From Psilocybe cubensis (taxonomy: Eukaryota), in assembly GCA_017499595.2 (NCBI GenBank), contig CM039001.1, positions 3,596,001-3,660,000 of the forward strand: DNA of 64,000 bases. The letters run 5' to 3'. Numbering within the stretch: position 1 is the first letter of the stretch; each line of letters starts with the position of its first letter. A program made the translations under genes and the position numbers. The notes under the pieces were generated by a model. That model had not been told where the DNA came from. It ran no database searches and saw nothing but the letters and a program-made list of their open reading frames with translations. Shown here one piece after another: positions 38,901 through 58,050 of the stretch.

Positions 38901-41900
38901 CCGTCGCTGACCACACAGACTGCCCGCCTTCAATCCCTACACCTGTCCGCACCGTCCTGTGCAACTTGCGCCGATTACGCAGCACGCCTTGGCGAACCGA
39001 GAGCCTGCTCAAATCCTGGGCCCCAAAGGAGCGTTGGGACGACATTGACGATGATCTGATTGCTGCTCTTTGCGATCTCCCCTGGACCGACGCCGCCAAA
39101 GTCCTCCAGCAGCTCAAGAAGCCCCGCGACTACATCTCCCGCATGGGGAGTAAATGCCTTGACATTCCAATGTCGGCTGCACCCCCAGGCTCGACCTCTT
39201 TGGTGTCGCTGAAAGCGCTCTTAGACAGCGGTGCCACTGGTTGTTACGTGCACTCCGATTTTGTCAAACTCAATGGATGGGTGACTGAGCGGCTGCCCCA
39301 CCCCGTTAGCGTTTACAATGCAGACGGAACTCGCAATGCCAACGGTGCTATCACAGATGTTGTTTACCTTGTCATCCGCATTGAAAACCATGTTGAGCGA
39401 CTCCGCCTTTCAGTCACCAACACGGGATCATCTTCCCTCATCCTCGGGCACTCCTGGCTCTGGTTCCATAATCCGCTTGTTGACTGGCGAGAGGCCAAGC
39501 TCTGCTTTGCACGCTGCCCCACGTCCTGTGGTGCTGACGTGCTGCCGACTTCGCACCCTGATGGCGAAACCGTGAATGTTTGCCGCGAAGGACCCCAGCT
39601 CCGTGAAGACGACATCTTTGATGACAGCCCGGGCCCCTTCACGCCGGTCTCTGCTGCGGAATGGGCTGACGCCTTTGCTGGTGAACTTGCCGATGGTGAA
39701 TCGATGTGCGCGGTTGACCTCAATGAGTTCACGTCCGAACAAGTCCATGGCTCATGCGACCACCGCATTTCTCACTTTTTGCGAACTCAACGTGAAGCAG
39801 CTTCATATCCCGACCGCTACCTGAAGGAATTTGCACCTGTTTTCTCCAAAGAGGAGTTTGACGAGCTCCCACCCCGTCGCCCATGGGATCATGCTATTAA
39901 CCTGAAACCAGATGCAAAGTCGTTCAAAGCAAAGCCGTACCGTCTGTCGCCCGCTGAAACCTCGAAGGTCAAGGAATGGATAGAAGAGGAAAAACGCACT
40001 GGCCGTATACGGGACTCCATCTCTCCCTATGCCGCCCCTTTCTTCTTCATCCAGAAAAAGGATGGCTCACTGCGCCCTGTGCAAGACTACCGACGCCTGA
40101 ACGATATCACGATCAAGAACCGCTATCCATTGCCGCTCATCTCTGACCTCATGGACAAGCTTAAAGGCGCGAAAGTATTCACCAAACTTGACGTCCGCTG
40201 GGGTTTCAATAACATTCGTATCAGGGAAGGCGATGAGCACAAGGCTGCCTTTATCACGGAGTTTGGACTTTTTGAGCCTCTTGTAATGTTCTTTGGATTG
40301 ACAAACTCACCAGCTACCTTCCAGAATATGATGAACGATCTGTTCAAGGATCTCATTGCTGGCGGCCATGTCGTGATATATATGGATGACATCCTCATCT
40401 TCACTGATGATGTCCAGTCCCATCGACATCTTGTCCGCAATGTCTTGCAGATTCTGGAGGACAACAAGCTTTATCTGCGGCCAGAAAAGTGCTGTTTTGA
40501 GCAGGACCGTGTGGAATACTTGGGCGTCATTGTCGGCCACGGGAAAATGTCCATGGATCCCAAGAAAGTTGACGCTATCACCTCTTGGCCAATCCCGCGC
40601 TGTCGTAAGGACGTCCAACAGTTCCTCGGTTTCGTCAACTTCTACCGTAGGTTTATCAAGAACTTCTCCCGCATTGCCGCTCCCCTGCATGCCCTGGGTG
40701 GTTCGGCGCCTTGGGTATGGGACAATTTGTCAACATCCGCCTTCAACGAGCTCAAATCCGCCTGCGCTTCACACCCGGTGCTACTTCTTCCCCGCGACGG
40801 TGCCCCATTCCGCATAGAGGCAGACAGCTCTGGATACGCAACCGGCGCGGTGCTCAGCCAATTTGTTGACAATTCCTGGCAACCGGTCGCGTTTGCTTCA
40901 AAAGCCCTCAGTCCCGTTGAGCGCAACTACGAGATACATGACCGCGAACTACTGTCAATCATGAGGTCTCTCGATGACTGGCGACGCTACCTCCACGGCT
41001 CCGATTCTCCTGTTGAGATCCACACCGATCACAAGAACCTTCAGTATTTCATGACCGCTCAGAAATTGAACCGTCGTCAGGCTCGCTGGTCCCTGCAGCT
41101 CGCTGAATTCGATTTCGTACTCGTCCACAAGCCAGGCCCGACCATGATCTGCGCAGACTCGTTGTCCCGCCGCCCCGACTACGATAAAGGTGTTGGCGAC
41201 AACGAAAACGTCACCTTACTGCGCCCAGAACACATTCGACGTACTGCTGAATGCTCAATTGGGGATGACCCCGTCCTGGCTGACATTCGAACTCACCAGC
41301 ACCAAATCACTGAAATGTGGGAAAAGCACAAGAACCTGCCTGGCTGGTCCCTCCACGACGGCTTGCTTTCATGGCATAACCGAATCTTTGTGCCAAACAA
41401 AGGCAACTTGCGTCAACGAATACTCGCCGACTGTCATGATCACCAATCCGTAGGCCACCCTGGCCGGATGAAGACCATGGAACTCGTCCTGCGCGACTAT
41501 TGGTGGCCGTCACTATCAAAAGACGCGAAGCGTTACGTTGATGGATGCCCCACCTGTCAATCAACTAAGCCTCTGAGGATGGCGCCCGCGGGCCTACTGA
41601 CCCCCAACGAAATCCCTTCCTCCAATTGGGAGATCATTTCCTGTGATCTCATCGTGGACTTACCTAAATCTCGCGGCTTCGATTCGATCTTTGTCGTCGT
41701 CGATAGACTCTCAAAAATGGTTCGTATCATCCCATGCAAAAAGTCAATCACTTCTGAGGGTCTCGCGCGCCTCTTCCGCGACCATGTCTGGAAAGACTTC
41801 GGACTGCCACGACGCATCATCTCCGACCGTGGTTCAATCTTCCTGTCAAACTTTACTCGGGCCCTCAACGACCTGCTAGGCATTTCACAGAACGCGTCCA

Positions 41901-43869
41901 CCGCATTTCGACCTCAAACAGACGGACAAACTGAGCGCGTCAATCAAGAAATCGAACAATACCTACGGATCTTTGTGAATAACAGGCAAAATGATTGGGT
42001 GGAATGGCTTGCATGCGCCGAATTTGCTATCAACAATAAGATTCACTCGTCCACTGGCTTCTCGCCCTTCTTCCTAAACTATGGCTCCAACCCCCGCCGA
42101 ACCCTGCAACCCGCACGCCTCTCGGACGACCGTGTCCCCAAAGCTCTTGAATTCGCCTCTCAAATGGATTCCCTCGCGAAGGAATCCGCTTCAGCGCTAA
42201 ACCTCGCCGCTGATGCAATGAAGCGATCCTATGACACCTCTCACCGCGCTCCACCCGTCTTCAATGTTGGCGACATGGTGATGCTCAGCGCCTCCGACAT
42301 CAAGTCCTCACGTCCGTCTAAAAAGCTCGATGTTAAGCGTCACGGACCTTTTCCTGTGACGAAACGCGTTGGCATCCAGTCTTACACCCTCGACCTACCG
42401 GCCTCGTGGTCGATCCACCCTACTTTCCATGTCTCTAAACTCTCCCGTTTCATACCAGCAGAATTCGATTCCCAAACTTCACCCGCGACACCAACACCTC
42501 CCCCCGCGTTACCACCCCCAGACATTGCAAGTGTGCTCGGCCACAGGGCCCTGCGCAGTGGAACACAGTTCCTCGTGCTGCTCGATGGCTGCACAGAGGA
42601 AGACGCTTCGTGGTCAAGCCACTCATCCTTCCCTAACTCTGAAGTACTAAACAATTACATACGCCTCCACAACATCCCGGACGCCCACCTTTAAGAGGGG
42701 GGTGATGTTAGAGTTCCCTCTAACGTAGACACACACACGTGCCTGTAGTCACATATCACACAGTATTTGTAGACACACCCGTAGCTACGTAGCCTCAGTT
42801 CCTTCTTTGTTAGCACACCCAACACGTTCTGGTCCTTCGTCTCTCTCTCCCGCCTCGTCTCCGGGTCTCCTCCTAACACTAAAAGAAAATAACCTATACA
42901 GTACCGAGGACTAGGACGAATGTTGCCAGACCCTGATTCAGTAGCATTGTCACAAGAGGCGTTCGCGATTTCCCTGTGCGGTGCCTCAAAATTAATCCAG
43001 CGAGCATAGCTATAACCAACACCATTTGTCCGAATATGGCACCAGCACTGGGTTTCAGTGAACAATTAGAGTCGATGCCTTCATGTATGGTAGTGTAGCC
43101 GCACATACCAGAAATAGTATATACCCACGTTCTTCAGACCCTGCCCACTGCACCCTAACGGACTCGTAGTCATGGCAATAAAATTTCCACTACCGTGTAG
43201 TTCCAACGAAATGGAAACGGTGAAAACACCAAAAAATAACCATTTGATTCTGGTACTTTGATTATACAACGCAAAAACTAGGTCAAATTACTATCGGATT
43301 AATTCCACATTCAATCCAAGTACTCACCTCTCAAAATCATCACCACCTCCATAAGAAAGACTCCCAACTGAACGACAACGCTTTGGGAGACTAACGCCTT
43401 CCTACACAACGTTTGGTCTTGTGGCGCATAGTCAAAAAAATCCATGGAGAGCACATGATTCACCCTGAATTTATATGATTATCAAAATCGTCTATGCAGT
43501 TCTTAAGCAGAAAAGATAGTAACGTACACTTGACCCAACAACATCAAATAGCGCGAACAGCTATATAGAATTTTTACTGCCCCAAATTTGCCTCTGGTAT
43601 CAGCCAATCCGCCATGAGATAGGTACATTGATTACAATAGGATAATTCGTACCTCCAGAGATACTCAACCTCTTCCGGGAAGCATATGATGGTTTCCCAG
43701 ACTTGGACAGTCAATGAAGCCACTGAAACGTTAACTAAGTAGAGGATACGAGAATATGGAGTTGATAGAGTTGATACTCACAAATAGCCCAACTAGCTGG
43801 GTCTTGAACAAGTCTTCCAAAATGCTTGTGCTCGTCCAAGGAAATTTCAAGCATGAATAGTTTAGTCAT
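35986..43869 (-). CDS. DUF6533-type membrane protein, copy A' (inverted paralog of A), with a Ty3/Gypsy element in an intron
   Basis: MTKLFMLEISLDEHKHFGRLVQDPASWA start at 43869; exons to LLNQGLATFVLVL at 42905; intron 42904-36417 contains the LTR element; last exon TCRILLQMWKL...SK. Whether it still splices is unknown. Confidence 0.78.
36453..36625 (+). repeat. 5' LTR of element 1
   Basis: TGTTAGAG...CCTAACA; no difference from 42706-42878 seen by eye. Confidence 0.97.
37269..38453 (+). CDS. gag: Gag of element 1
   Basis: Retrotransposon gag motifs PGAFDGS, WSDFEERVKDSF, QCFKMAL; CCHC knuckle CFNCGVFGHFMRVC. Confidence 0.95.
   Translation: MPPGKSKGRSVSPRRGRDGSDDDTVSRIDPAIIALIKASQESNKETMKDILELSRIQAETMFKSFLALPQLQTSTHSSATTSTARSGDSRAYKVPFPGAFDGSSDTVEDLLASWRNFFHSDPEAYKTTDSKVRTALSSFKTGTPAVWRNQLIEELESGQCVLTNWSDFEERVKDSFLFHFSQQRAAREIMCIRQNSTPTQEFIIIFENLAFRSKFNDEALIQCFKMALDKRIMEEIGRTHREMPTFAEWKSAAILMAHRLRETDATVTPVVNTTATWRPPPSFTSTPSTVQKSSNPRPAAPAPNATLPANISAAPNRRAALPCFNCGVFGHFMRVCPKPKDLEFQRKSRAKLERARAVLECFDALPDDDKHEIRCVDVDESALFDDSDFVSCVE
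38429..42694 (+). CDS. pol: Pol of element 1 (PR-RT-RH-IN-chromo-like), in the -1 frame relative to gag
   Basis: LLDSGA protease, YMDDILI RT, EADSSGYA/TDHKNL RNase H, HHCC and DDE integrase (CDLIVDLP, ISDRG, QTDGQTERVNQEIE), GPF motif; slippery G GAT TTT at 38429-38435. Confidence 0.96.
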   Translation, partial: GFCFLRRVSSTSSPLLYNNPVITPKLHVALSPKSVPLPVLPVYATPQPSLSNSVLTPDKPSSSTTSPNSDYPTPTLLPAHPQPPTMAPDCIPYSDLFLSCPEDDPPELQAPDASDDSDEDSPTKPAQQTSAHDDASVSMTHDASPPPAPRDSLLCSPPVADHTDCPPSIPTPVRTVLCNLRRLRSTPWRTESLLKSWAPKERWDDIDDDLIAALCDLPWTDAAKVLQQLKKPRDYISRMGSKCLDIPMSAAPPGSTSLVSLKALLDSGATGCYVHSDFVKLNGWVTERLPHPVSVYNADGTRNANGAITDVVYLVIRIENHVERLRLSVTNTGSSSLILGHSWLWFHNPLVDWREAKLCFARCPTSCGADVLPTSHPDGETVNVCREGPQLREDDIFDDSPGPFTPVSAAEWADAFAGELADGESMCAVDLNEFTSEQVHGSCDHRISHFLRTQREAASYPDRYLKEFAPVFSKEEFDELPPRRPWDHAINLKPDAKSFKAKPYRLSPAETSKVKEWIEEEKRTGRIRDSISPYAAPFFFIQKKDGSLRPVQDYRRLNDITIKNRYPLPLISDLMDKLKGAKVFTKLDVRWGFNNIRIREGDEHKAAFITEFGLFEPLVMFFGLTNSPATFQNMMNDLFKDLIAGGHVVIYMDDILIFTDDVQSHRHLVRNVLQILEDNKLYLRPEKCCFEQDRVEYLGVIVGHGKMSMDPKKVDAITSWPIPRCRKDVQQFLGFVNFYRRFIKNFSRIAAPLHALGGSAPWVWDNLSTSAFNELKSACASHPVLLLPRDGAPFRIEADSSGYATGAVLSQFVDNSWQPVAFASKALSPVERNYEIHDRELLSIMRSLDDWRRYLHGSDSPVEIHTDHKNLQYFMTAQKLNRRQARWSLQLAEFDFVLVHKPGPTMICADSLSRRPDYDKGVGDNENVTLLRPEHIRRTAECSIGDDPVLADIRTHQHQITEMWEKHKNLPGWSLHDGLLSWHNRIFVPNKGNLRQRILADCHDHQSVGHPGRMKTMELVLRDYWWPSLSKDAKRYVDGCPTCQSTKPLRMAPAGLLTPNEIPSSNWEIISCDLIVDLPKSRGFDSIFVVVDRLSKMVRIIPCKKSITSEGLARLFRDHVWKDFGLPRRIISDRGSIFLSNFTRALNDLLGISQNASTAFRPQTDGQTERVNQEIEQYLRIFVNNRQNDWVEWLACAEFAINNKIHSSTGFSPFFLNYGSNPRRTLQPARLSDDRVPKALEFASQMDSLAKESASALNLAADAMKRSYDTSHRAPPVFNVGDMVMLSASDIKSSRPSKKLDVKRHGPFPVTKRVGIQSYTLDLPASWSIHPTFHVSKLSRFIPAEFDSQTSPATPTPPPALPPPDIASVLGHRALRSGTQFLVLLDGCTEEDASWSSHSSFPNSEVLNNYIRLHNIPDAHL
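42706..42878 (+). repeat. 3' LTR of element 1
   Basis: Direct repeat of 36453-36625, preceded by the PPT. Confidence 0.97.
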
Positions 43870-44672
43870 CGCCAACTGTAGACTGAGTCGACAATAGCAC
43901 GCAGAGAAAAGGTGTGAACTTACTGAGCGCTATATCGGGCAGCTTATATATGATGCTCCAGGAGTCAGGGCAGAGAGCACCGAAGCATTGTCATTATTCA
44001 ATACAACCCTTGAGTTTGACAACATCAAACGTTTCCCGCAAGAGAATTAACAGCCGTCTTACCGAAATTGTGACATCCGTAGCCCATTATGTTGCAATTT
44101 AAGACCTTCATATCATGTTACTATCAAACTTGCGACAAAGAAGCAGGGGAGCAGTATGGAGACTTGAATGCGATATAGAATTTTCAAAAATTTGAAAGAC
44201 ATTTCGCAGGGGCATGCGAGTCTATGACGCCTCGTCATCAATCCGATAGACTGGTCGTCGTTAGCCGTTGTGAGTTGTCGAATCACCGTCTTCTCCAACA
44301 ATGTGGGCAACCTAAGTGCCCCGGTGTCCATCGTTTTGTTCCACAAAGAGCGAATAGCGGCGTTAGCGTCTGTCTGTCCAATTATACCTGTAACCGGTCT
44401 GTATAAGAAGTAGTCAGGATAGTCACGAGGCTACTGTCCAACGTGGAGACTCGAGAATCCGAAATCGAGGTATATGGCGCCTCTGGTTTGTGGGTAACTG
44501 TTGTCCTTTTGTATTCGTCAGCACGGACTACGCTAAGAGTTCGGCTTCGTTGGGGAACAAATTAATTGAATCTCCGACAGATCATCGACATCGATCAATT
44601 GATGGCACGAGCGCTTCGAACTTGTAATTTCGGCCGAAGCAATTGTCACAGCCTGCAACATCCTCACCTATA

Positions 44673-44886
44673 CACTGCTGGCGCTGATACATATTTGATA
44701 GAAAAATATGTATCGGTAATTATGTTTCCTATTGGTTTTTGACGTATTTTACTGGAATATAGGCTTCGGGCTTCCCTAATTGGGTAACCCCGGACTCTAT
44801 ATACGAGAAAAATATGTCAAAAACCAACAGGAAACATAATTACCAATACATATTTTTCTATCAAATATGTATCAGCGCCAGCAGTG
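44673..44886. mobile_element. 214-bp MITE with CACTG...CAGTG termini (CACTA/CMC-type ends)
   Basis: 78-bp TIRs (44673-44750 and 44809-44886) with 3 transition mismatches; 3-bp TSD ATA (44670-44672 and 44887-44889). Confidence 0.92.
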
Positions 44887-45505
44887 ATAGCTACTCACTT
44901 ACATCCCGACGTCAACCATTTATGTAGCAGCATTGGGTATAGTATTGATTTGGAAACTCTATGAAATATCAATAGATGGACACTATTATAAATTCAAAAA
45001 GAGAAAATCTCAGATAGCTCCTGGTTTATCGACGCATTTTTGCCATTTTGATGGTCCTGGCGCCCACGATGCTTTAAGCCACTCGGTATCCCACCGTCTA
45101 GACGTTTATTCTATATTAGGTTAAAAGAACAAAGGCAAGTCACTGGGGTCGACACACACACACACACCGTTTCCCAGGCGTCCGCGTCATGCTTTATTGG
45201 TCATCGTCATCTTTACTCGTTCCCTTGTTTTTCCCACCTTTCTTTTCGGTCCATTGCCTGTTTCTATGGCGCACTTAAGGCCTTGGAAGACGATAATATA
45301 ACCTATCAGAAGGTAAGCATCATCGCACCGCTCCTTGATCCGCAACTACCACCTCCAGCACATTTCCCACGCACCTAGAGCGCGAAGGGACTGTCTGACG
45401 GGCGTATTAGCTGTCGAGTAGAGTAATTAACCAAACATAACACGTACCTAAAAGTACTCAAACCCAACCCAACCCAAAAATCACCCACACCCATTAAACT
45501 TGTCA

Positions 45506-47143
45506 ATGAATGTCACCTCCGGCACGGCGCGTGCCAAAAAGACAACCACGGGAATCTCTCCCACGCCGGGTCAGAGTGACGCTGCTTCGGCCGATAGGGC
45601 GACCAGGAGCAAGGGGACTGTAGTCAATGAGGACCTCCAGCAAGTCCAGAACGCGAAGGGAGGACGTACAATCTTGGAGGAACACCAGTTGTTGGTGCCA
45701 GCTGGACAGAGTCTCACGGCGCACCGGGCCGCCGCTTGCCTGTTTCAGATAGCACAGATGTCGAACAAAACTCCGCCCGTCGTGGTCTAAGCCATGAGGG
45801 GACTGGCGTTCATGCTAGAGGACATGGAGCTCCCGCTCGCGACTCAAACCTACCACGACGGATTCGGCGAAGAACTGGCAACTTTCACAAACGAAATCAA
45901 GTCCTTAGTCCAACACGCGCAAGACAAAGTGGATCAGAAACTTGACGAGATCAACAAGGCGACGGCTAATCTTATCAAGTCGGCTAGCGTGACCCCCCCG
46001 CGACAGCCCTCAAACAGCGGACCCTCATACAGCCAGGCCCTCTCGAAGGGCCTCACGTCGGTCAACCAGATCCTGGTACAAGCTAACGTGGCAACAAACC
46101 CCAGAATGTTGGCGCGACACGGCATTCGGGCTCGACAGTCCATGCTGGAAGGCATAAACAAAGATGCGAAAGTCGGCTCCATGGGGGATAGGGAGGCGAA
46201 AGACGCCATCAACAAGATCCTCCAGGCGCTCGAGCCGGAGGGTTCAGTAAGGATCCGGTCGGCAATAAAACAACGGAACGGAGGACTCCTGATCGAGTTT
46301 GACTCGGACTTTGGCGCGGCGTGGATGCGAGTGGAAGAGAACAGAGTCAACCTGTGCAAACAAATCGGAGACGACGTTACGACCAAGAAACGAACCTACG
46401 AGCTGATTGCCATGGGAGTCCCACTCACCGCTGAGCCCGAAGATGCAGACTTCCTGAGGGAGGTTGAGGAATCCAACAGAGTCGACGAGGGCACGATAGT
46501 CTCCATGCGCTGGGCCAAGAAGATCTCGAGGAGGGCGGTAGGTCAGAAGAGCGCGCATGTCATACTCACGGTCAACGATGCCAGCGAAGCCAACAGGCTA
46601 ATCGCCATCGGCATGTACATGGCTAACAAACGGGTGAGAGTACAAAAATGCAAAACTGACCCAATCCGCTGTCTCAAATGCCAGGGATACAATCACTTCG
46701 CGAAGGAATGCACCTCTAAGCACGACATTTGCGGCCACTGCGGAGAGAAGGGAGGACACCGCACTCCGGACTGCGAAAAGACGAAGACTTACTGCGTATC
46801 CTGCGACGCCGACGACCATCCCAGTTACGATCGTACATGCCCGGTCTTCATCAAGAAAATTGCAGAAAAGGACGAGCGTACCCCCGAAAACAAGCTGCCA
46901 TTCATCCCGACGGACGAGCCCTGGACATGGAGCATGGACACGAACGCAGCGCCAGCGACTCTTCAAAAGAAAACACTGGCGCGAGGCCAATCTCCACGCT
47001 GGACGATAGAACCACCTGCAAACTCGCGAGGGTCAACGCTCAAGACACCTGAGCAGAGCCCTGAGCCCGAGGCCTCTCAGCAACCCAAAACGTCCAGAGT
47101 AACCTCGTCGGAGGCGAACCAAGCAGACGACGACGAAAACTAA
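45506..47143 (+). pseudogene. LINE ORF1 (gag-like, three zinc knuckles) with premature TAA at 45788-45790
   Basis: ORFs 45500..45790 and 45794..47143 share a frame across one TAA; CLKCQGYNHFAKEC, CGHCGEKGGHRTPDC, CVSCDADDHPSYDRTC. Confidence 0.9.
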
Positions 47144-47960
47144 AAGATGAGTAACACTCCCCCCCTTGAACAGTATATCCACCGAATAAAAATTCTGCAG
47201 ATAAACCTGAACAAGTCAGAAGTCGCGCACCTCGAGATTATGAACGCAAACCTAGGAAGCGAGTACGACATAGTACTCATCCAGGAACCTCATATCACAC
47301 ACTTCGGGAACATAAGGACGAGCGCCCACTTCCGCCCTATCTACCCAGTCGGATGAGCAGGGACGGCCACCACAAGGTCAGGCATCTGGGTCAACAAACG
47401 GCTGAACACAAGCCACTGGTGTGAAGTAGCGATTCCCGAATCGAACGACATAACTGCAATGAAACTCGAGTGCGAAAGAGGGACGATCTACATCTTCAAC
47501 GTCTACCACCCAGGGCGCACGGGGGGAACACTTCAAGCACTCCAGCGGTATCTCGATAGCCATCGCAGGCAACTACGCGAACCGAATACATTTCAGATCT
47601 GGGCGGGCGACTTCAACCAACACCATCCAATGTGGGACCGCGACGAGGACGACAGACTCTTCACACCTCAGGTGCTGGCGGAGGCCGATAGGCTGATCGA
47701 ACTCGTCGAGGAGAATGGGCTGTCAATGGCATTACCGAAAGGCTTGCCGACCCTTGAACACATGGTAACGAAAAAGCTGTCGAGACCTGACAACGTTTTC
47801 CTTACAGAGGCGCTGCTTGAACATGTCATCAAATGCAATGTCGATTACACCAACCGTCCTGCCAACACCGATCACTATCCGATAGTAGTCGAGATTGACG
47901 CTAGATGTAAGCGAGCCGACGCCACACTCGAGAGGAACTTCCGCACGACCAGTTGGGAAC

Positions 47961-48410
47961 TGTCAGGGTTTCTCCAGTTTCCCCTCTTTATCTTCACAGA
48001 ATTATCTTATCCTTTCATTATCTTATCAATTATCTGATTAGATAGTTTATTTCTTTCATCACAGCCTTTTTGCTCCACTTCTTTCTAGTAAATTCTATAT
48101 GATTCCTAGTCTTACTCATCCTTTTTCTATATGATGTCACTTTTATTCTTTAACCTTCCTTTATGATGTAATGTAGGGAATATTCTAGAATAGCTGTAAA
48201 GTATAAATACTGGACTTGTAGGTAGCTGTAGCTTCAGCTTCAATCTCTTAGGATATCCACTATCATTGGTGTGATCTCTTAGAATCATTGAATCTCTCTC
48301 ACACTCTTATTCTCTCTTTGCTCTCTTATTCTCCCTCTACTCTCTCTCTCTCTCCCTTGCTTGATCTTTGTTGGTGGCCTTGTCACACTGATTATAGTGT
48401 TGCCCTGACA
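47961..48410 (+). repeat. 5' LTR of element 2
   Basis: TGTCAGGG...CCCTGACA; TATAAATA at about 48202; two substitutions versus the 3' LTR seen by eye. Confidence 0.97.
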
Positions 48411-48914
48411 GAAGATTGAAGCTCTCTCAAGACAACTCCACCATCTCTTTTTCAACACCACACTCTTCACCTCTTCAACCTCTTCAACATCATCACCTCA
48501 ACCTTCTTCCTCCACTTCCAACCCACCAACCTCTTCATCAACCTCTTCACCAATCTTCTTACCAACCTCTACATCTCCACCAATCTTCAACATCCTCCTC
48601 AAGACCTTTCCTCAAGACCTTTCCTCAAGACCTTTGGCTCATCATCTTTCCTACTCTCTGTTGTGTGCTGTGTGTGAACTTAGTAGATAGGGATACCAAC
48701 TGTTGGGGCAGACACAGTCCTACTAGTGTTCTGTTTTTGGTGGTCTAGGAAATATCCAGTAACCCTGTGATCCTAGGTTTAGAGCCCTGAGTGGTGTGAC
48801 AACTGGGTATCCAGTAGATAGATATTTTTTTAGAATACTTAGTATAGTTTCAAGGGCACTTTTAGTAGATAGCTTCTCCCACACACACATCAGAGAGCCT
48901 ACCTACCCCTACCC

Positions 48915-50024
48915 ATGGACATGGACCCCTCCCAATTGCCTCCCACCACTCCTTCTGTGGAAGAGCTCATGCATCAGGTCCAGCTCCTTACCCAAGAGTT
49001 GAATTTTCTTAGACAGCAGCAGCAGTCATCATCCACTCCACCACACCCTCAGCAACCAGTCAGTCAGTCACCATCATCACCACCACCACCACCACCTGCT
49101 GCTCTAGATATTCACTCTTTCCCTACCCCTCATGTTGCCCCTTCCTGTTCACACTCTGTCATTAAAGTCTCACCTCCAGATCCATTTGATGGTTCTATGG
49201 AGAAGGCAGAAAACTTCCTCAGTCAGCTCAAATTATATTTCTATGGGAAAGGGATTACAGATGACTTTCAGAAAGTTATTTGTGCTCTATCTCATATGAA
49301 AGGAGGTACTGCTGGGAAGTGGGCATATGAGAAGACTAAAGTAATAGACAATGCTCAGTCCCAAGAAGGTCTTTGGGCTGACTTTGTTTATGAATTTAGG
49401 GAAGTGTTTGCAGATCCAGACCCCTCCAACACAGCTAAGCATAAAATGCACATGCTCAAGCAAGGCAGACAGACTGCTGATGAGTATGTTGCTAGCTTCA
49501 GGGCTCTGATCTCAGATACTGGGTATAATGATGCTGCTTTGGTAGACCAATTCAAGGCTGGGCTCAATGAAACTCTCAGGAATGCAGTCTACTATGTTCC
49601 TGACATGCCCAAAACCTTGGATGAATGGATTAAATGGAGTACTAGGCTAGATAGGCAGTGGAGACAGAGTGAGGCCTTTACCAAGTCTCTTTCCTCCTCC
49701 TCATCTTCTCCCTTTCTTAAAGCCCCAACTCCCAAGGCTGTTCCTAAGCCTACTCCAAATCCTCCAGTCTTTTCCAACAGCAGCTCAAGGACCTTTGGTG
49801 CTCAGGCAAAGCAACCAGATGTAGTTTCCATGGAGGTTGACTCTGGATGGAAGTCAGTTAGGCCAATTGTTTGCTTCAAGTGCAGAAAGCCTGGTCATAA
49901 GGCTGTAAACTGCAGGTCATCAGTTAACATCAATGCTATGACCCATGAAGAACTGGCTGACTACTTTGGGAAATTAATCTTGGAAGGCAAGGAGCAGAAA
50001 GATGAGGAAAAGAAAAATTTTTAG
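48915..50024 (+). CDS. gag: Gag of element 2
   Basis: PDPFDGS, LSHMKGGTAGKW, LKQGRQTADEY, QFKAGL; CFKCRKPGHKAVNC. Confidence 0.95.
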   Translation: MDMDPSQLPPTTPSVEELMHQVQLLTQELNFLRQQQQSSSTPPHPQQPVSQSPSSPPPPPPAALDIHSFPTPHVAPSCSHSVIKVSPPDPFDGSMEKAENFLSQLKLYFYGKGITDDFQKVICALSHMKGGTAGKWAYEKTKVIDNAQSQEGLWADFVYEFREVFADPDPSNTAKHKMHMLKQGRQTADEYVASFRALISDTGYNDAALVDQFKAGLNETLRNAVYYVPDMPKTLDEWIKWSTRLDRQWRQSEAFTKSLSSSSSSPFLKAPTPKAVPKPTPNPPVFSNSSSRTFGAQAKQPDVVSMEVDSGWKSVRPIVCFKCRKPGHKAVNCRSSVNINAMTHEELADYFGKLILEGKEQKDEEKKNF

Positions 50025-53000
50025 AAGCACCATTGGTGAAAGACATGTCCCAATGGAATAGATTTAATGTACTAGAAAATGAAATTGACAGACTTGATCC
50101 TCAGTCTTCAGATTCTGGTGCAGAAATCATGTCTTCTTCTTCCTCTCTTTCTACCTTCCCTGAAAAGATCTACATCCTCAACCATAATCCTAAAACCTCT
50201 ACCCATTTGTCTGTCATCTTAAAGACAATGGACACAGAGAAAAGGTTATCTGTTGATGCTTTGCTTGATTCTGGAGCTACTGGCCTCTTTCTGCATTCTG
50301 GTTTTGTGAAGTATCATAATCTCAACACAAGGAAACTTCCTAGAGCCATTCCAGTCTATAATGTTGATGGTACTCTCAACAAGAGTGGCTCTATCCATGA
50401 GGAAGTAGACTTAATTATGGTACACAAGAACCATACAGAAAGGGCCACCTTTGCTGTTTGTGACTTGGGAGACAAATCTGCTATCATTGGACATACTTGG
50501 CTTTGGCACCATAATCCAGATGTTGATTGGAAGACAGGGGATGTTCAGTTTATTAGATGTCCCTCTGACTGCCAAATGGAAGCCAAAAGAGCCAGAAGAA
50601 AGAGGCAGAGAATAGCTGCAGTCAAAAGGAGGAAACTCCCTCAATTTGATGAAGAAGAAGATGATTCTATTGAAGATTCTTCTGATTCTGAGATTGAGCC
50701 TGAGGACAGAATTTTCATCTCATACCTTCATCCTCAGAAGCAGTCTATTAATGCTACTTCTACTATGTCTCAAAGATTAGCAGAAGAGTCTCATCAGCAA
50801 GCTGATTCTCCTAAGAAAACCTTTGAAGAAACTGTCCCTAAGCACTATCACCAGTTTAAAGGTGTTTTTTCAAAGGAATCTTTTGATAGGCTACCAGACA
50901 GGAAGCCTTGGGATCATGCTATTGAGCTGAAACCTGGTTCTGAACCTTATAGATCCAAGATTTATCCTCTCTCTCCCAATGAACAAAAGGAACTTGATGC
51001 CTTTTTAGAGGAAAATCTGAAGTCTGGCAGGATTAGACCCTCCAAGTCACCTATGGCCTCCCCTGTATTCTTTGTCAAGAAGAAGGATGGATCTCTTAGG
51101 CTTGTCCAGGACTATAGGAAACTGAATGAAATGACCATCAAGAACTCCTACCCCCTTCCATTGATTTCTGACATTATCACCAAACTCAGCAAAGCCAAAT
51201 ACTTCACCAAACTTGATGTTAGGTGGGGATTTAACAATGTCAGAATCAAAAAGGGAGATGAATGGAAAGCAGCCTTTAGAACCAATAGAGGGCTGTTTGA
51301 ACCATTGGTCATGTTCTTTGGTTTAACCAATAGTCCTGCTACCTTCCAAACTATGATGAATGATATCTTTATTGAGCTCATTGATGGAAATGTTGTCATT
51401 GTCTACATGGATGACATTTTAATTTTCACTGAGACTCTTGATCATCATAGAGAGGTAGTCAAGCAAGTTCTGCAAATCCTAGAACAGAACAAACTCTACC
51501 TTAAAGCAGAGAAATGTGAATTTGAAAAGGAAAAGATTGAATATCTTGGACTAATCATTTCACAAGGCAGGATTGAGATGGATCCTGTCAAGGTAGAGGG
51601 AGTTTCTAAATGGCCTGAACCTGAAAATGTCAAGGATGTCCAATCATTCTTGGGATTTGTTAATTTTTATAGAAGGTTCATAGAGGATTTTGCAGACATT
51701 GCTAAGCCCCTTCATGAATTGACAAAGAAAGGAACAGTCTGGAGATGGAGTCTTAGACAGCAGGAAGCCTTTGACCAGTTAAAGAAGAAAGTCACTTCTT
51801 CACCTGTCTTGATTTTCCCTGATGATAACAAGCCATATAAAGTTGAAGCAGACAGTTCAGATTATGCTACTGGGGCTGTTTTATCTCAGGAAGGATCAGA
51901 TGGGAAATGGCATCCTGTAGCCTTTATGTCTAAGAGTCTATCTGAAGTAGAAAGGAATTATGAGATCCATGACAAAGAGATGCTGGCTATTATCAGAGCA
52001 CTAGATGAATGGAGACATTATCTTGAAGGAACCCAACATCCCTTTGAGATTTGGACAGACCACAAAAACTTAGAGTACTTTATGGTTGCCCAAAAGCTCA
52101 GCAGAAGGCAAGCCAGATGGTCACTCTTCCTGTCCAGATTTGATTTTACTCTTCATCATAGGCCTGGTAAAAGATCTCTTAAGCCAGATGCTTTGTCTAG
52201 GAGACCAGATCATAAAAAGGGAGAGAATGATAACCAAAATGTAGTTCTCCTCAAACCTTCCTACTTTAAAATCCAGGCTCTCAAGCAGGGTCATGCTACC
52301 ATTACTGGTGCAGAAAATGATCTTCTTAAGAAGATTAGAGAAGCTAAGGAGATGGATGAAAAGGTGGTCAAGGCAGTTCAGGAGCTCAAGAAATCTTCTA
52401 CCAAGAAGATTGAAGGACAGGAATGGTCAGAAGAACAAGGCCTTATTCTCTACAGGGGGAAGGTGTATGTTCCCAAGGACAAAGATCTTAGAAGAAAGAT
52501 TGTGGAACTGCACCATGATGCCTTCATTGCTGGACATCCAGGGAAATGGAAGACAATTGAGCTAGTCTCTAGGAATTATTGGTGGCCAGGAATGTCACAT
52601 TTTATTGCAGCCTATACCAGAGGTTGTGATAGATGCAACAGAACCAAAACCTTTCCAGCCAAACCTCTTGGCCTCTTGATTCCTACTGAGATTCCCTCTG
52701 ATGTCTGGCAATGCATCTCTGTGGACTTTATTATGGGATTACCAGAATGTCAAGGGTATAATGCCATTATGGTGGTTGTGGATAGACTTAGTAAAATGAT
52801 CCACATTATCCCTACTACAGATGAAGTCACTTCTGAAGGGACAGCCAGACTATACAGAGATTATGTCTGGAAACACCATGGCTTACCCATTAAAATTCTG
52901 TGTGATAGAGGTCCACAATTTGTCTCAAGGTTTATGAAAGAACTCAACTCAATACTTGGTATCCAGACAGCCTCATCTACAGCCTATCATCCCCAAACTG

Positions 53001-53902
53001 ATGGTCAGACTGAAAGAGTTAACCAAGAAATTGAGCAGTATCTTAGACTCTTTATAAACCATAAACAAGATGATTGGGTTGAATGGTTAGCTCTAGCTGA
53101 ATTCTCTTATAACAATAGAGTTCAGGCTTCAACCAGGCAGACACCATTCATGCTCAATAATGGCAGACATCCCAGAATGGGCACTGAACCCCTTAGAGAT
53201 AGTAAAATGGACACTGTGAATACCTTTGTGAAAAATATGGAAGAAGCCAGGAAAGAAGCAGAGTCTGCACTTAGAAAAGCTGCTGATGATATGGCTAAAT
53301 TCTATAATAGACACAGAGGTACTCCAACTCAGTACAAAGTTGGGGATTTGGTATGGTTGGATGGCAAGGACCTCAAAACTGATAGGCCCTCCAAGAAATT
53401 GGATGATAAAAGATATGGGCCTTACAAAATTACCAAAGTTATTAGCCCTAATGCCTATGAGCTTAAGCTGCCATCTACCATGAAAATCCATCCAGTGTTC
53501 AATGTGGTTAAACTTCTACCTTATCACCCAGATATTGTAGGAAGAAAGCCTCCTTCTAGACCACCTCCTGTCATTCAAGGAGAAAATCCTGAGTGGGAAG
53601 TTGAATTTATCAAGGACAGCAGACTTTTTAGAAACAAACTTCAATATTTGGTCAAGTGGAAGAACTATCCTAATGAAGAATGCACTTGGGAGCCTGCAGA
53701 GCATTTAAAAAATGCTTCTAAGGCTATCAAGGACTTCCATGCCAAACATCCTTCAGCACCTAGAAGGATTTCTGCTGTGACCTTTGATAGACTTTCTTTC
53801 ACTCCTATTATTAACTTTACTGAACCTCCTCCTCTTCTTAAACCCTCTAAACTAACCCATCCATGTGCACATTGTGGAAAATGTGCCTTAGAGAGGGGGT
53901 GA
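50018..53902 (+). CDS. pol: Pol of element 2 (PR-RT-RH-IN-chromodomain), in the -1 frame relative to gag
   Basis: LLDSGA, YMDDILI, EADSSDYA, TDHKNL, SVDFIMGLP, CDRG, QTDGQTERVNQEIE, GPY; chromodomain EWEVEFIKDSR...YLVKWKNYPNEECTWEP; slippery A AAT TTT at 50015-50021 directly before the gag TAG. Confidence 0.97.
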   Translation, partial: FLEAPLVKDMSQWNRFNVLENEIDRLDPQSSDSGAEIMSSSSSLSTFPEKIYILNHNPKTSTHLSVILKTMDTEKRLSVDALLDSGATGLFLHSGFVKYHNLNTRKLPRAIPVYNVDGTLNKSGSIHEEVDLIMVHKNHTERATFAVCDLGDKSAIIGHTWLWHHNPDVDWKTGDVQFIRCPSDCQMEAKRARRKRQRIAAVKRRKLPQFDEEEDDSIEDSSDSEIEPEDRIFISYLHPQKQSINATSTMSQRLAEESHQQADSPKKTFEETVPKHYHQFKGVFSKESFDRLPDRKPWDHAIELKPGSEPYRSKIYPLSPNEQKELDAFLEENLKSGRIRPSKSPMASPVFFVKKKDGSLRLVQDYRKLNEMTIKNSYPLPLISDIITKLSKAKYFTKLDVRWGFNNVRIKKGDEWKAAFRTNRGLFEPLVMFFGLTNSPATFQTMMNDIFIELIDGNVVIVYMDDILIFTETLDHHREVVKQVLQILEQNKLYLKAEKCEFEKEKIEYLGLIISQGRIEMDPVKVEGVSKWPEPENVKDVQSFLGFVNFYRRFIEDFADIAKPLHELTKKGTVWRWSLRQQEAFDQLKKKVTSSPVLIFPDDNKPYKVEADSSDYATGAVLSQEGSDGKWHPVAFMSKSLSEVERNYEIHDKEMLAIIRALDEWRHYLEGTQHPFEIWTDHKNLEYFMVAQKLSRRQARWSLFLSRFDFTLHHRPGKRSLKPDALSRRPDHKKGENDNQNVVLLKPSYFKIQALKQGHATITGAENDLLKKIREAKEMDEKVVKAVQELKKSSTKKIEGQEWSEEQGLILYRGKVYVPKDKDLRRKIVELHHDAFIAGHPGKWKTIELVSRNYWWPGMSHFIAAYTRGCDRCNRTKTFPAKPLGLLIPTEIPSDVWQCISVDFIMGLPECQGYNAIMVVVDRLSKMIHIIPTTDEVTSEGTARLYRDYVWKHHGLPIKILCDRGPQFVSRFMKELNSILGIQTASSTAYHPQTDGQTERVNQEIEQYLRLFINHKQDDWVEWLALAEFSYNNRVQASTRQTPFMLNNGRHPRMGTEPLRDSKMDTVNTFVKNMEEARKEAESALRKAADDMAKFYNRHRGTPTQYKVGDLVWLDGKDLKTDRPSKKLDDKRYGPYKITKVISPNAYELKLPSTMKIHPVFNVVKLLPYHPDIVGRKPPSRPPPVIQGENPEWEVEFIKDSRLFRNKLQYLVKWKNYPNEECTWEPAEHLKNASKAIKDFHAKHPSAPRRISAVTFDRLSFTPIINFTEPPPLLKPSKLTHPCAHCGKCALERG

Positions 53903-54352
53903 TGTCAGGGTTTCTCCAGTTTCCCCTCTTTATCTTCACAGAATTATCTTATCCTTTCATTATCTTATCAATTATCTGATTAGATAGTTTATTTCTTTCA
54001 TCACAGCCTTTTTGCTCCACTTCTTTCTAGTAAATTCTATATGATTCCTAGTCTTACTCATCCTTTTTCTATATGATGTCACTTTTATTCTTTAACCTTC
54101 CTTTATGATGTAATGTAGGGAATATTCTAGAATAGCTGTAGAGTATAAATACTGGACTTGTAGGTAGCTGTAGCTTCAGCTTCAATCTCTTAGGATATCC
54201 ACTATCATTGGTGTGATCTCTTAGAATCATTGAATCTCTCTCACACTCTTATTCTCTCTTTGCTCTCTTATTCTCCCTCTACTCTCTCTCTCTCTGCCTT
54301 GCTTGATCTTTGTTGGTGGCCTTGTCACACTGATTATAGTGTTGCCCTGACA
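53903..54352 (+). repeat. 3' LTR of element 2
   Basis: Direct repeat of 47961-48410. Confidence 0.97.
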
Positions 54353-57300
54353 GGAACGCTTTAACAAGACGCTAGAGAAACACCTTGCAGAAACGGAAGA
54401 GGCACTGGAGCTCAATACGGGGCAGGAGATAGACAGGGAAGTTTTGCGACTGACCAAAGCTCTGCAGAATACCATCAAGGACGAGGTAAAGCTACGCAAA
54501 CCTCTCCCGGAGTCGAAACGATGGTGGACCAGCGAAGTGGAGGAAGCCAAAAGGTATAAAAACAGAATGGGCAGCCTGCACCACAGGTTTCGCGCATATC
54601 CTGACCACCCATGCCATCTCGAGTTCAAAGCCGCGAAAAGAGTCTTTGCCAGACTAGTTCTTGACACGAAGCGCAACCACTGGAGCGACTGGCTCCTCGA
54701 AGCCGAGGGCACCGACATCTGGACAGCAAACCGGTATTTCAAGAACCCCGTCGGGGACGGGGGCAGACCCAGAATACCTTCGCTGACAATAACTAACGAA
54801 TACGATGAAAGGGAGGATGTAACGTCAAATGCAGACAAAGCGAAGTTATTCGCGCATACGTTCTTTCCAAAGAAGCCAAACCACTCCTCTGTACCGCAGG
54901 ATTACGAGTACCCTGAAGCAATACAAGACGACGGATATGTCACCCGCCAGCAGATTCAACGCCAACTGGGGAGGCTCTCTCCCTACAAGGCCTGCGGAAT
55001 TGACGAGATACCCAACGTAGTCTTGCAGAAAACGGCACCACTCATAATCAACCGCCTGCACTCGATCTACAATGCGATTCTCAAGACTGGGCACTACCCA
55101 GAGCCCTGGAAACACTCTATTACGGTCGTCCTCAAGAAGCCGGGCAAACCTGACTACAAAACAGCAAAAGCATACAGACCAATAGCCCTGCTGAACACAC
55201 TGCCCAAGGTTCTAACGGCAATTGTTGCTGAACGAATCAGTCACCTGGTAGAACAACATAACCTCCTCCCGAATACCCACTTTGGAGGGAGACCGGGACG
55301 TACAACGGCAGATGCCATGCACTATATGGTCGACAAGGTCAAGACAGCGTGGAGAAAAGAGAAAGTGGTCTCGATGCTCTTCCTCGACGTGGAAGGCGCC
55401 TTCCCAAACGCCGTGACGGACCGTCTCTTGCACAATCTGAAGAAACGCAGAATACCAGAAGTCTACGTCAAGTTTATTCGAGAACTGCTCAGAGACAGAA
55501 AAACAAAACTGAAGTTTGACGACTTCATTTCAGAACTGATGAAGATCGACAACGGGATCGGTCAAGGAGACCCACTGTCTATGATCTTGTACATCATCTA
55601 CAACGCTGATCTTCTTGAAATAGTAGACCGCAGTAATGGCGAGGACGCGATCGGATACGTGGACGATGTAACACTGGTGGCAACGGGGAATGACTTCGAC
55701 GAAACCACAGACAAGCTGAGTATTCTAATTCACAAAGAGGACGGAGCTCTCACCTGGAGCGATAGACATAACTCAAAATTCGCACCCGCGAAGCAAGCGG
55801 TGATGCACCTCGATCCACGCAACCCCAATTCTCTCGAGCACCCTCAACTAGAAGTCAACGGTGAGTTAGTCCCGCTGGTCCGTGACTTCAAATGTCTAGG
55901 CTTTCGCCTAGACTGCCAGCTACGGTGGAAAACGCACTTGCAGAAAGCTATTGAGCGGGCGACGGCATGCGTCAACTACTTTCGACGATTAGCAAAACCC
56001 ACAACCGGCATCCACCCATACCTTCTCCGTCAGCTGTACATAGCGACCGTCTTGCCGAGGCTCACATACGGGATCGACGTTTGGTACACACCGCCAACAA
56101 AACCGATCGGGTACAAGAATAACGTGGGGTCCATAGCAGCGCTGAAGAGAATGACGTCAATTCAGAGAAAGGCCACACTGGCAATAACAGGCGCAATGAG
56201 ATCAACTCCTACGGAGTTGCTGGACGCCTATGCAGGTGTCCTCCCCCTCGAGTTAGCACTGCTCAAGGCCTGCCACAGGGCCCTCGTCCGAATGGCAACT
56301 CTACCTAGCACACACCCGCTACACAAGGCACTATCTAGAGCCGAAACCAACCCGGCAAAACGACACAGGTCCCCGATCAACAACCTCATACAAATATTTG
56401 ACCTAAAACCGAGCACGATCGAAACAATACGACCTACGCCATACCCAACGAACTATAGGCCACCCTTCAAAATTGTGATAGCAAGCTCCAGGGAGAAATC
56501 GATGAGGTACGAGAAGGAGAGCAAAGCTAACGTTAGGGTTTACACCGATGGTTCTAGCCACAACAATGGCACGGGAGGAGCGGCTATACTATTCAGAACA
56601 CGACGAGACAGGCATGGTAAGGTACTGCGTAAGTACCTGGGCACCAAGGAGGACCACAACACCTACGAGGCAGAGGCGGTAGGAGGCCTACTGGCCTCCA
56701 AACTCATCCGAAACGAAGAAACGACGCATCAAGACGTGATCGACGTCTTCAGCGACAATCAGTCCTTACTCCAGAACCTACGATGGCCTAAAGCTAAGTC
56801 AGGACAGCAGATCATGTTAGACATTGATGAAGCTTTTCGTACCCTGCAGGGCAACATCACGCTACACTGGATATCAGGTCACTCCGACGTGTTCGGGAAC
56901 GAACGTGCGGACGAAGAAGCGAAACGGGCAGCAGACGGCGACTCCTCTCCCAGCGACGACCTACCCGCCTCGCTACAAACCACGATGAAGCGCAGCGCGT
57001 CTGCGGAGAAGCAAGCGTACCAGGAAGAGTTGATGACAATCTGGAGAGACCGATGGAATTCATCAAGGAGAAAACAAAAATTCGCCACAATAGACACCGA
57101 GTTCCCATTCAACAAATTCCGGAAAGCTACAAAGAAGCTCAACAGGACCCAGGCCAGCGTATTGATCCAGCTGCGAACCGGGCACGTTCCGCTGAATAGC
57201 CATCTCAGCAAGTTTACCGCAAACCTAGACGAATACTGCCCAAAGTGTTTTGAGAGAAGAGGGGGGAGGAAGGCGGTGGAGACAGTAGAACACTTCATAT

Positions 57301-58050
57301 TCGAGTGCAAGAGGTATCGCCGTCAAAGGAGAGAACTCTGGAACGAACTAGGGGAGGAATGCACGAGCCTCGAAGAACTAACAACAAAATACAATTACAT
57401 CAAGGCCTTACTACAATACATCGCGAAAACCAAACGACTTCGACCCTACAAAGAAGACCTATTACGACGGGGGACTGAAGAAGAGGAGGACGAATGAAAT
57501 CGAGGATGTACACCACAACACACGCACGAACGAGTCATTGCAAGAGGTGAAGAGCAGGCGAAGGAGCCTATATAAAAAGAGCTGGAGGCGTCATCTCAAA
57601 CGGCTTAGGAAGGCTGGGCTAAGTGGGGGGACGTGAGGGCCCCCCATAGCGCAGAGATGGGCCGGGGAAGGCTCGCCACGCTACAGGAGCGTTGTAGGTA
57701 CTTAGGTAGAACCAAGCCAAGGGAGGGGCTCCCCCCTCAGAGGCTATAACACAAAACAAAAAAAAAAAAAAAAAAAAAAGCATCATCGCTGCTGGCAGAC
57801 TCTCTCCAGAGTGTTCACAGGGTTTACACACTCCGGGTCTAAAAGGTAGTGAACTAATTTCAGAATCGACTATTGTCTTGTTCCGGGTGGAGTCATACCG
57901 ACGAGGATGTACAGAAGCTACAATTAAACAACAACGAGGCACACATTCAACGCATGCAAACTTTAGTGGTATAAAGCCGCTCTTTCTGTTTTATTATTCT
58001 ACTGTACAATCTTCCATTCCATTCCCATTACCACCACTACAGCTACTACC

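Follow-up and report, generated by a model that had tools for sequence, protein, structure and literature searches.

How a retrotransposon can lose every CpG dinucleotide and still keep all of its proteins is the question raised by a 6,392-bp element of Psilocybe cubensis. The element lies in a 64,000-bp stretch of contig CM039001.1 (assembly GCA_017499595.2, positions 3,596,001 to 3,660,000 of the forward strand), hereafter the window, to which all coordinates refer. It is a complete Ty3/Gypsy (Metaviridae) long terminal repeat (LTR) retrotransposon and, by the chromodomain at the C-terminus of its integrase, a chromovirus. A first-pass annotation, made from the letters of the window, had described it as an intact, young and apparently CpG-free element whose lineage purged the dinucleotide before inserting. 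The overall explanation that we favour, at a probability of roughly 0.7, is that of an intact, recently active chromovirus of the Tf1/sushi type, the lineage of which was CpG-free before the burst that gave rise to its present copies.

CpG is missing from every part of the element

The interval 47961-54352 contains 0 CpG against 268.3 expected from base composition (GC content 41%), the basis of the CpG expectations given here, and GpC occurs in it 214 times (observed/expected ratio, o/e, 0.80). Every part of the element is at zero, from LTR to LTR (Table 1). The CpG-free gap measures 6,411 bp, bounded by a CG at 47946 and a CG at 54357, and the second-longest such gap in the whole 64-kb window measures 191 bp. 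Mononucleotide shuffling of the element, repeated 2,000 times, gave a mean of 267.6 CpG and never fewer than 220, and among the other 6,392-bp stretches of the window the lowest count was 215. The 5-kb flanks carry the dinucleotide close to expectation (307 CpG vs 299 expected, o/e 1.03, and 300 vs 318, o/e 0.94). TG and CA are mildly in excess in the element (o/e 1.23 and 1.16; TG+CA 1.19, vs 1.12 for the whole window).

The first-pass annotation had arrived at the absence of CG by eye, with an estimate of about 250 expected, GC dinucleotides noted as common and CG seen to return directly behind the element. The dinucleotide count that it proposed as a check bears it out on each of these points (0 CpG in the interval; next CG at 54357; o/e 1.00 in the flanking long interspersed nuclear element, LINE), and the span that it gave is confirmed by the LTRs and the GGAAC target-site duplication.

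The coding sequence is recoded under purifying selection

Arginine is specified by AGA or AGG in 90/90 codons (gag 12/12, pol 78/78), as had been read from the letters, and the codons TCG, CCG, ACG and GCG do not occur in gag or pol. The avoidance extends across codon boundaries, where 314 codons end in C and 478 start with G yet never adjoin, against 90.5 such C-G junctions expected from the element's own codon composition (gag 22.1, pol 68.4). Both open reading frames (ORFs) are open, as first annotated, gag over 369 aa and pol over 1,289 aa without premature stop. Of 420 alignment columns with a conservation of 90% or more across 71 distant relatives (identity up to 62%), pol keeps 406. The conserved Arg columns are kept in 29 of 33 cases, the remaining four having become K (twice), H and N, and none of them C, W or a stop. 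At columns with an Arg majority the element has changed to Lys in 9 of 77, to C or W in 0 and to H or Q in 4, the last being no excess. Together with its 41 closest protein relatives it has extra Lys at such columns (12–13% vs 5.8%), without an excess of the direct deamination products H/Q or C/W. The Arg/Lys pattern fits a presumed old switch to AGR codons (R, purine) followed by AGR-to-AAR drift, and not raw deamination damage.

These features bear on a different account, in which a single copy was stripped of CpG after insertion by methylation-driven hypermutation or by a process resembling repeat-induced point mutation (RIP). Stripped Gypsy copies exist elsewhere, in the metagenome loci and in the assembly G001 described below. 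Complete CpG conversion was simulated on a second Ty3/Gypsy element of the window, and a conversion confined to one strand (all CG to CA) can give 0 premature stops and 0 LTR mismatches, so that open ORFs and near-identical LTRs alone are not decisive against stripping. When the strand was chosen site by site, however, the simulated element acquired a mean of 11.5 premature stops (minimum 5) and 8.8 LTR mismatches. Moreover, no CG-to-TG or CG-to-CA change can turn CGN into AGR, yet every one of the 90 Arg codons is AGR, and 29 of the 33 conserved Arg are kept. TG+CA is 1.19 in the element vs 1.68 in the simulation and 1.31–1.35 in real stripped copies, and the roughly 60 copies about 99% alike in an independent sequencing run (below) require a founder already CpG-free or nearly so. 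Stripping after insertion is in our view extremely improbable. A dead RIP-like hypermutated copy, considered as a candidate, was rejected on 0 stops, no change of Arg to C or W, a TG+CA of 1.19 and LTRs 99.6% identical.

Many near-identical copies descend from a founder with no or almost no CpG

Copy number was approached through a 31-mer index in which 22 runs are listed, four runs being mapped on 46961-53902 (6,942 bp, flank included). The element or part of it is present in 16 of the 22 listed runs (8 studies), and 72–78% of its 31-mers occur in 11 of the 22, under several organism labels. In one raw Illumina run (X19) the read depth is 19–30 over the LINE flank, about 1,500 over the interior (mean of 23 bins) and about 3,100 over the LTR, which places the interior at about 60 times the flank depth. 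The LTR/interior ratio of 2.09 leaves little room for solo LTRs. The 69,421 X19 reads over the whole mapped stretch, flank included, divide into 37,382 that are at least 99% like the window, 28,123 at 95–99%, 2,963 at 90–95% and 953 below 90%, so that 94% of mapped reads are at least 95% like it. More than 1,900 reads end loose at the LTR edge, where consensus agreement is 0.35–0.5, indicating many different insertion sites.

Since these copies are about 99% like a CpG-free copy, their founder was already CpG-free or nearly so. In a small, selected sample, 40 of 461 difference rows, applied together, created no CpG. The LTRs are identical at 448 of 450 sites, in agreement with the two or so differences first noted; the two are A/G and C/G, and neither is CpG-type or in a former CpG context. 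At a rate of about 1e-9 per site per year two LTR differences correspond to an age of about two million years, with very wide uncertainty. The unbroken ORFs, the close match of the two LTRs and the large number of near-identical copies at different sites point to a family that is active, in the sense of being transposition-competent. The loss of CpG before the present burst, under purifying selection, is supported by the data: AGR-only Arg, 406 of 420 conserved columns, near-identical LTRs and about 60 copies about 99% alike uphold the earlier proposal of a purge that preceded insertion.

The same reads bear on an artefact, either an error made at methylated CpG in assembly, base calling or polishing, or a construct synthesised without CpG; the total loss of one dinucleotide would resemble the latter, engineered CpG-free DNA having just this property. 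Both kinds of artefact are contradicted by the raw Illumina data of X19 (37,382 of 69,421 reads at least 99% alike), by the 16 of 22 runs from 8 studies that hold the element or part of it, by a target-site duplication within a LINE ORF that becomes readable once the element is removed, and by flanking transposable elements (TEs) with normal CpG. An artefactual origin can be regarded as practically negligible.

Further observations come from the reads. At 254 variable places in X19, C>T (88) and G>A (50) exceed T>C (35) and A>G (24) despite the CpG-free sequence, and on the plus strand C>T exceeds G>A. Within the 40 difference rows mentioned above, a high-depth family of a second run (X12), about 83% identical to the element, includes a 154-nt stretch with apparently 0 CpG, a weak indication that it too is CpG-free. 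In a single case, at 50326-50327, the window has CA and this X12 family TG, as would result from independent decay of one ancestral CG, on opposite strands, in two lineages. The 31-mer index names no RNA run that carries the element; a third run, X14, presumed by guess to be RNA, yielded 5 short contigs at depth 2–4 and speaks neither for nor against expression.

Depleted relatives are decayed

Of 8,000 candidates scored in a protein search, 2,995 were relatives at E 1e-30 or better, and the 120 best of these range from 85% to 54% identity. The closest cluster (84% aa) includes full-length copies of 1,253 aa from Psilocybe cf. subviscida, at least six of them, spread over five scaffolds. Named relatives at 55% identity occur in Lyophyllum shimeji, and proteins 55% identical carry the source name 'Tf2 155 kDa protein type 1-like'.

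DNA of the closest relatives (67–85% aa) was absent from the JGI metagenome scan (best 60%), from IMG/VR (best 53%) and from prokaryote genome contigs. The DNA set comprises 94 loci (80 metagenome, 11 IMG/VR and three from prokaryote-labelled assemblies), of which 81 cover at least 1,000 residues. The 80 metagenome loci (43–60% aa identity) have CpG o/e of 0.14–1.07 and the 11 IMG/VR loci 0.13–0.73. An ORF of at least 1,000 aa is kept by 8 of the 81 loci, at CpG o/e of 0.63–1.29, and all 39 loci with CpG o/e below 0.60 are broken, the 15 most depleted (0.13–0.40) having 7–36 in-frame stops each. CpG-free runs of 600–1,491 bp (26 runs, GC 32–41%) occur in 19 of the 80 metagenome loci, and ten of the 26 matched the element's pol by tblastn. 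Related fungi commonly show strong CpG erosion of their Gypsy elements, invariably coupled to decay in this sample; the window element departs from that rule.

One of the prokaryote-labelled assemblies, G001, titled as a Lapillicoccus metagenome-assembled genome (MAG) chromosome (6.65 Mb; loci L094-L109), is apparently a chimera. GC content is 0.68–0.71 and CpG o/e 1.12–1.19 in five samples taken between 0 and 4.0 Mb, as against 0.31–0.54 and 0.18–0.92 in seven samples from 4.4 Mb onward, which are eukaryote-like in character. The eukaryote-like part contains at least five long copies (84–90% nt identity) of a Gypsy-derived repeat, with 2, 15 and 27 CpG vs about 300 expected and TG+CA o/e of 1.31–1.35; L094, the one copy checked for this, lacks any ORF of at least 150 aa. 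Two contigs of a MAG labelled Pyrinomonadaceae (L092, L093) carry a fungal-type Gypsy pol 58–59% identical to that of the element, at CpG o/e of 1.2–1.3, which is probably eukaryotic contamination of the bin.

Origin of the CpG purge

CpG-biased transitions in basidiomycete TEs, attributed in Agaricomycotina to deamination of 5-methylcytosine, are described in PMC3318451, and PMC4352252 and PMC4014442 respectively associate CpG signatures with a Masc2-like Dnmt1 and report CpG-to-TpG hypermutation in Rhizoctonia. Methylation in Pleurotus is mostly at CpG and concentrated on TEs according to PMC6191308. We propose that the lineage of the window element would have passed through long exposure to such CpG-specific mutation, that is, deamination of methylated CpG in repeats. 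Only copies with working proteins would have founded new copies, each CpG at an essential position being a liability. Copies in which CGN Arg had become AGR, and NNC before G had become NNT or NNA, would have been favoured and would have left more functional descendants. Zero CpG would be an absorbing state, at which no CpG methylation and no CpG-directed mutation is possible. That long exposure to CpG-directed mutation caused the purge seems to us the probable course, though held with some reserve.

Several observations weigh against it. The TG+CA excess, 1.19 vs 1.12 window-wide, is small for a purely deamination-driven purge. The LINE and the young second Gypsy element both have CpG o/e of 1.00, so that there is no general strong CpG erosion of young repeats in this genome; the second Gypsy element is moreover young yet CpG-rich, and CpG-richness is therefore no bar to recent insertion here.

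The modest TG+CA excess would also suit a removal of CpG by selection at the level of RNA, through a ZAP-like CpG-sensing restriction or through effects on RNA stability or translation. So would the move of conserved Arg to AGR, a change that calls for transversions or selection and that deamination does not produce, and the fact that the genomic RNA represents all parts of the element, LTRs included. We know of no CpG-sensing RNA factor in fungi, however, and CpG is palindromic, so that RNA and DNA targets are inseparable in the data. CpG-directed mutation of basidiomycete TEs at the DNA level is, by contrast, documented (PMC3318451, PMC4352252 and PMC4014442). Selection on RNA is in our view a very unlikely cause.

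The normal CpG of the co-resident young Gypsy element and LINE may instead mean that the CpG-free state arose in another host with far stronger CpG-directed mutation and arrived by horizontal transfer or introgression, as a legacy trait. Such an import would accord with a burst that looks recent, without an excess of solo LTRs (ratio 2.09), with near-identical copies under at least five organism labels, with nearest named relatives (84% aa) that are multi-copy in Psilocybe cf. subviscida, and with the metagenome loci and G001, which reveal fungi whose Gypsy elements are far more heavily eroded in CpG. The case for transfer is indirect, however, and the organism labels may stand for close relatives or strains; we consider import unlikely, if well short of far-fetched. 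It and a purge by CpG-directed mutation are not exclusive, and import alters where the purge happened, not the nature of the element.

Whether the purged state helped the element is a separate matter. A sequence without CpG cannot, by logic, carry CpG methylation or undergo CpG-directed mutation, and with 0 CpG in 6,392 bp there is no substrate for CpG methylation. This part of the first-pass proposal, that the element offers no target, stands. The other part, that it would thereby be a stealth active element, is a logical conjecture, and a CpG-rich Gypsy element close by is equally young. That CpG-freeness aided the burst through escape from methylation is plausible, though we hold it to be less likely than not.

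A wider version of the purge by CpG-directed mutation would have an entire Agaricales chromovirus clade (about 40 protein clusters, 67–85% identity) CpG-free for a long time as a heritable counter-defence; we put it forward tentatively and think it rather unlikely. The clade so envisaged would share a low-Arg, high-Lys make-up and count the multi-copy elements of Psilocybe cf. subviscida among its members. Down to an identity of about 67%, relatives have about 6% Arg and 8–9% Lys, as in the element, and most relatives below 60% have 8–9% and 5–6%. K/(K+R) is 0.53–0.63 in the 67–85% clade vs mostly 0.29–0.50 elsewhere, a proxy that is a hint only, one locus with CpG o/e of 1.06 having a value of 0.57. 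The proxy is confounded by AT content and its calibration is weak (r=-0.32, n=10 loci with DNA), a point against our reading. If true, such a clade would elude the chief control that mushrooms exert on repeats at the DNA level, could burst repeatedly and would constitute a natural CpG-free reporter for the role of CG methylation in fungi.

Element anatomy and insertion site

The features of the element are collected in Table 1. Transcription would start from the TATA-containing LTR, where the TATAAATA box precedes, by 34 nt, the segment that is complementary to the primer site. Reverse transcription would probably be self-primed, the first 11 nt of the RNA (AGCTTCAATCT) pairing with the site just 3' of the 5' LTR. 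The two segments (48236-48246 and 48413-48423) are paired in both the minimum free energy and the centroid fold of 48236-48430 (z -2.05), and no TGG-type tRNA primer site was found on reading the sequence directly 3' of the 5' LTR. In the leader a 13-nt unit (CCTCAAGACCTTT) stands in three tandem copies at 48597-48635. One unit is missing from 715 of 1,653 X19 reads (deletion at 48596), which indicates that the repeat number is polymorphic among copies.

The pol frame is -1 relative to gag and open from 50006, and a hairpin starts 8 nt downstream of the A AAT TTT heptamer (z -1.76); pol would be made by a putative -1 frameshift at this heptamer. The Pfam matches of pol are strong for RVT_1 (1.1e-37), RT_RNaseH (4.9e-39), Integrase_H2C2 (6.9e-20), rve (3.4e-10), SH3_Tf2-1 (3.6e-18) and Chromo (2.5e-15). 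The protease match is weak (gag-asp_proteas, 3.6e-3; 18.3 bits vs a Pfam cut-off of 28.2). Integration would generate the 5-bp duplication, here within a LINE. In-silico excision of the element together with one copy of the duplication gives a 1,247-aa LINE ORF2 frame across the junction, and the LINE ORF at 54444-57497 has RVT_1 and RNase_H matches.

Table 1. Features of the CpG-free element, its host LINE and the comparator Gypsy element
Feature	Coordinates	Strand	CpG found (expected)	Remarks
Second Ty3/Gypsy element (comparator)	36453..42878	+	430 (430)	pol 48% identical to pol of the CpG-free element
Host LINE-like non-LTR element	45794..57497	+		CpG o/e 1.00; ORF2 split by the CpG-free element
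Target-site duplication, left copy GGAAC	47956..47960	+		identical pentamer on both sides
5' LTR, 450 bp	47961..48410	+	0 (13.2)	ends TGTCAGG...CCTGACA; 448/450 sites identical to 3' LTR
TATAAATA box, putative promoter	48202..48209	+		only TATAAA within the LTR
AGCTTCAATCT, putative first 11 nt of transcript	48236..48246	+		exact reverse complement of 48413-48423
Untranslated leader, C-rich	48411..48914	+	0 (21.4)	
Putative primer-binding site, self-priming (Tf1/sushi) type	48413..48423	+		2 nt past the 5' LTR
gag, 369 aa	48915..50024	+	0 (57.7)	Pfam: Ty3_capsid 1.6e-10, Retrotrans_gag 1.4e-9, zf-CCHC 3.3e-4
A AAT TTT slippery heptamer, putative -1 frameshift site	50015..50021	+		directly 5' of gag stop
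pol, 1,289 aa	50033..53902	+	0 (159.1)	order protease, reverse transcriptase, RNase H, integrase (H2C2 and core), SH3_Tf2-1, chromodomain
Chromodomain PF00385	53594..53743	+		pol residues 1188-1237, E 2.5e-15
Polypurine tract AGAGAGGGGG	53890..53899	+		followed by pol stop TGA; 3 nt before the 3' LTR
3' LTR, 450 bp	53903..54352	+	0 (13.5)	
Target-site duplication, right copy GGAAC	54353..54357	+		its final C opens the first CpG past the element

The second Gypsy element, about 5 kb from the CpG-free one, has LTRs 100% identical over 174 bp, a CTAAA duplication and open gag and pol. Its CpG is exactly at expectation (o/e 1.00) and its Arg codons are CGN in 118 and AGR in 8 of 126.

The window as a whole is rich in transposons (Plavaka, LINE and the two Gypsy elements). 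An ORF of 620 aa at 8518-10380 contains a Plavaka transposase domain (E 4.4e-52) and DUF6830 (E 4.6e-45), marking a DNA transposon typical of Agaricomycetes. Along with the nearest named relatives of the element, in Lyophyllum shimeji and Psilocybe cf. subviscida, this transposase puts the host among the Agaricomycetes, probably in the Agaricales. A palindromic or hairpin repeat of 224 nt (44668-44890), 88% identical to the reverse complement of itself, lies just upstream of LINE ORF1. A minus-strand ORF (338-1168) with matches to SPT5 KOW domains is the one host gene fragment that could be clearly made out; it gave no match to longer proteins at E 1e-20 or better, and probably represents only part of an exon structure.

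Comparison with known systems

The element resembles Tf1/Tf2 of Schizosaccharomyces pombe and the Tf1/sushi chromoviruses in its order of protease, reverse transcriptase, RNase H and integrase, in SH3_Tf2-1 and in the C-terminal chromodomain. Tf1 uses a self-priming mechanism and has a single ORF. As in Tf1, the predicted primer site is complementary to 11 nt near the putative transcript start and is not a tRNA site. Unlike Tf1, the element has two ORFs joined by a putative -1 frameshift and lacks CpG totally, and the sequence relation between the two is probably only distant. The predicted self-priming site, the SH3_Tf2-1 match and the 'Tf2' source names of relatives at 55% identity together suggest its assignment to the Tf1/sushi group.

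With the CpG-hypermutated TEs of basidiomycetes, as treated by Horns 2012, Amselem 2015 and Hane 2014, the element shares the dinucleotide, the fungal group and the element class. Hypermutated relatives in the metagenome loci have CpG o/e of 0.13–0.3 and CpG-free runs of up to 1.5 kb. Work by Hood in 2005 and Clutterbuck in 2017 reportedly concerns CpG-hypermutated basidiomycete TEs as well. In contrast to such elements, which are mutational wrecks, the window element is at an o/e of 0 yet intact, with Arg recoded and about 60 near-identical copies. Textbook CpG erosion of methylated repeats normally accompanies decay, as in the 39 of 39 relatives below 0.60 that are broken. An autonomous 6.4-kb element at zero CpG, with all domains kept and about 60 copies, indicates that a mobile element can evolve through a defence until it is targetless. 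With a CpG-free and a CpG-rich young Gypsy element a few kb apart in one genome, the locus is also a natural experiment, and a comparison of the two for methylation, chromatin, small RNAs, expression and mutation spectra would show which share of control is due to CG methylation and which to other layers. The element is of relevance, too, for the annotation of repeats and for methylome studies in which CpG content serves for normalisation.

Vertebrate retroviruses and RNA viruses that evade ZAP likewise have CpG far below expectation with functional proteins (cf. PMC12012506). They differ in that the host belongs to another kingdom, that the suppression is partial and that the sensor is an RNA-binding protein. 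Among ascomycete elements, short or low-copy repeats escape RIP by being without the features that RIP recognises. The window element would be like these in persisting by offering no substrate to a sequence-directed defence; it is unlike them in that the target dinucleotide itself would have been lost across a full-length autonomous element. Thresholds of length and identity for RIP are quoted in PMC3318451. Full-text searches of the literature brought up no description of an intact retrotransposon free of CpG; a precedent may be contained in Clutterbuck 2017 (Fungal Genet Biol 104:16). The window element stands apart from these known systems in having lost CpG totally while remaining fully intact and present in many copies.

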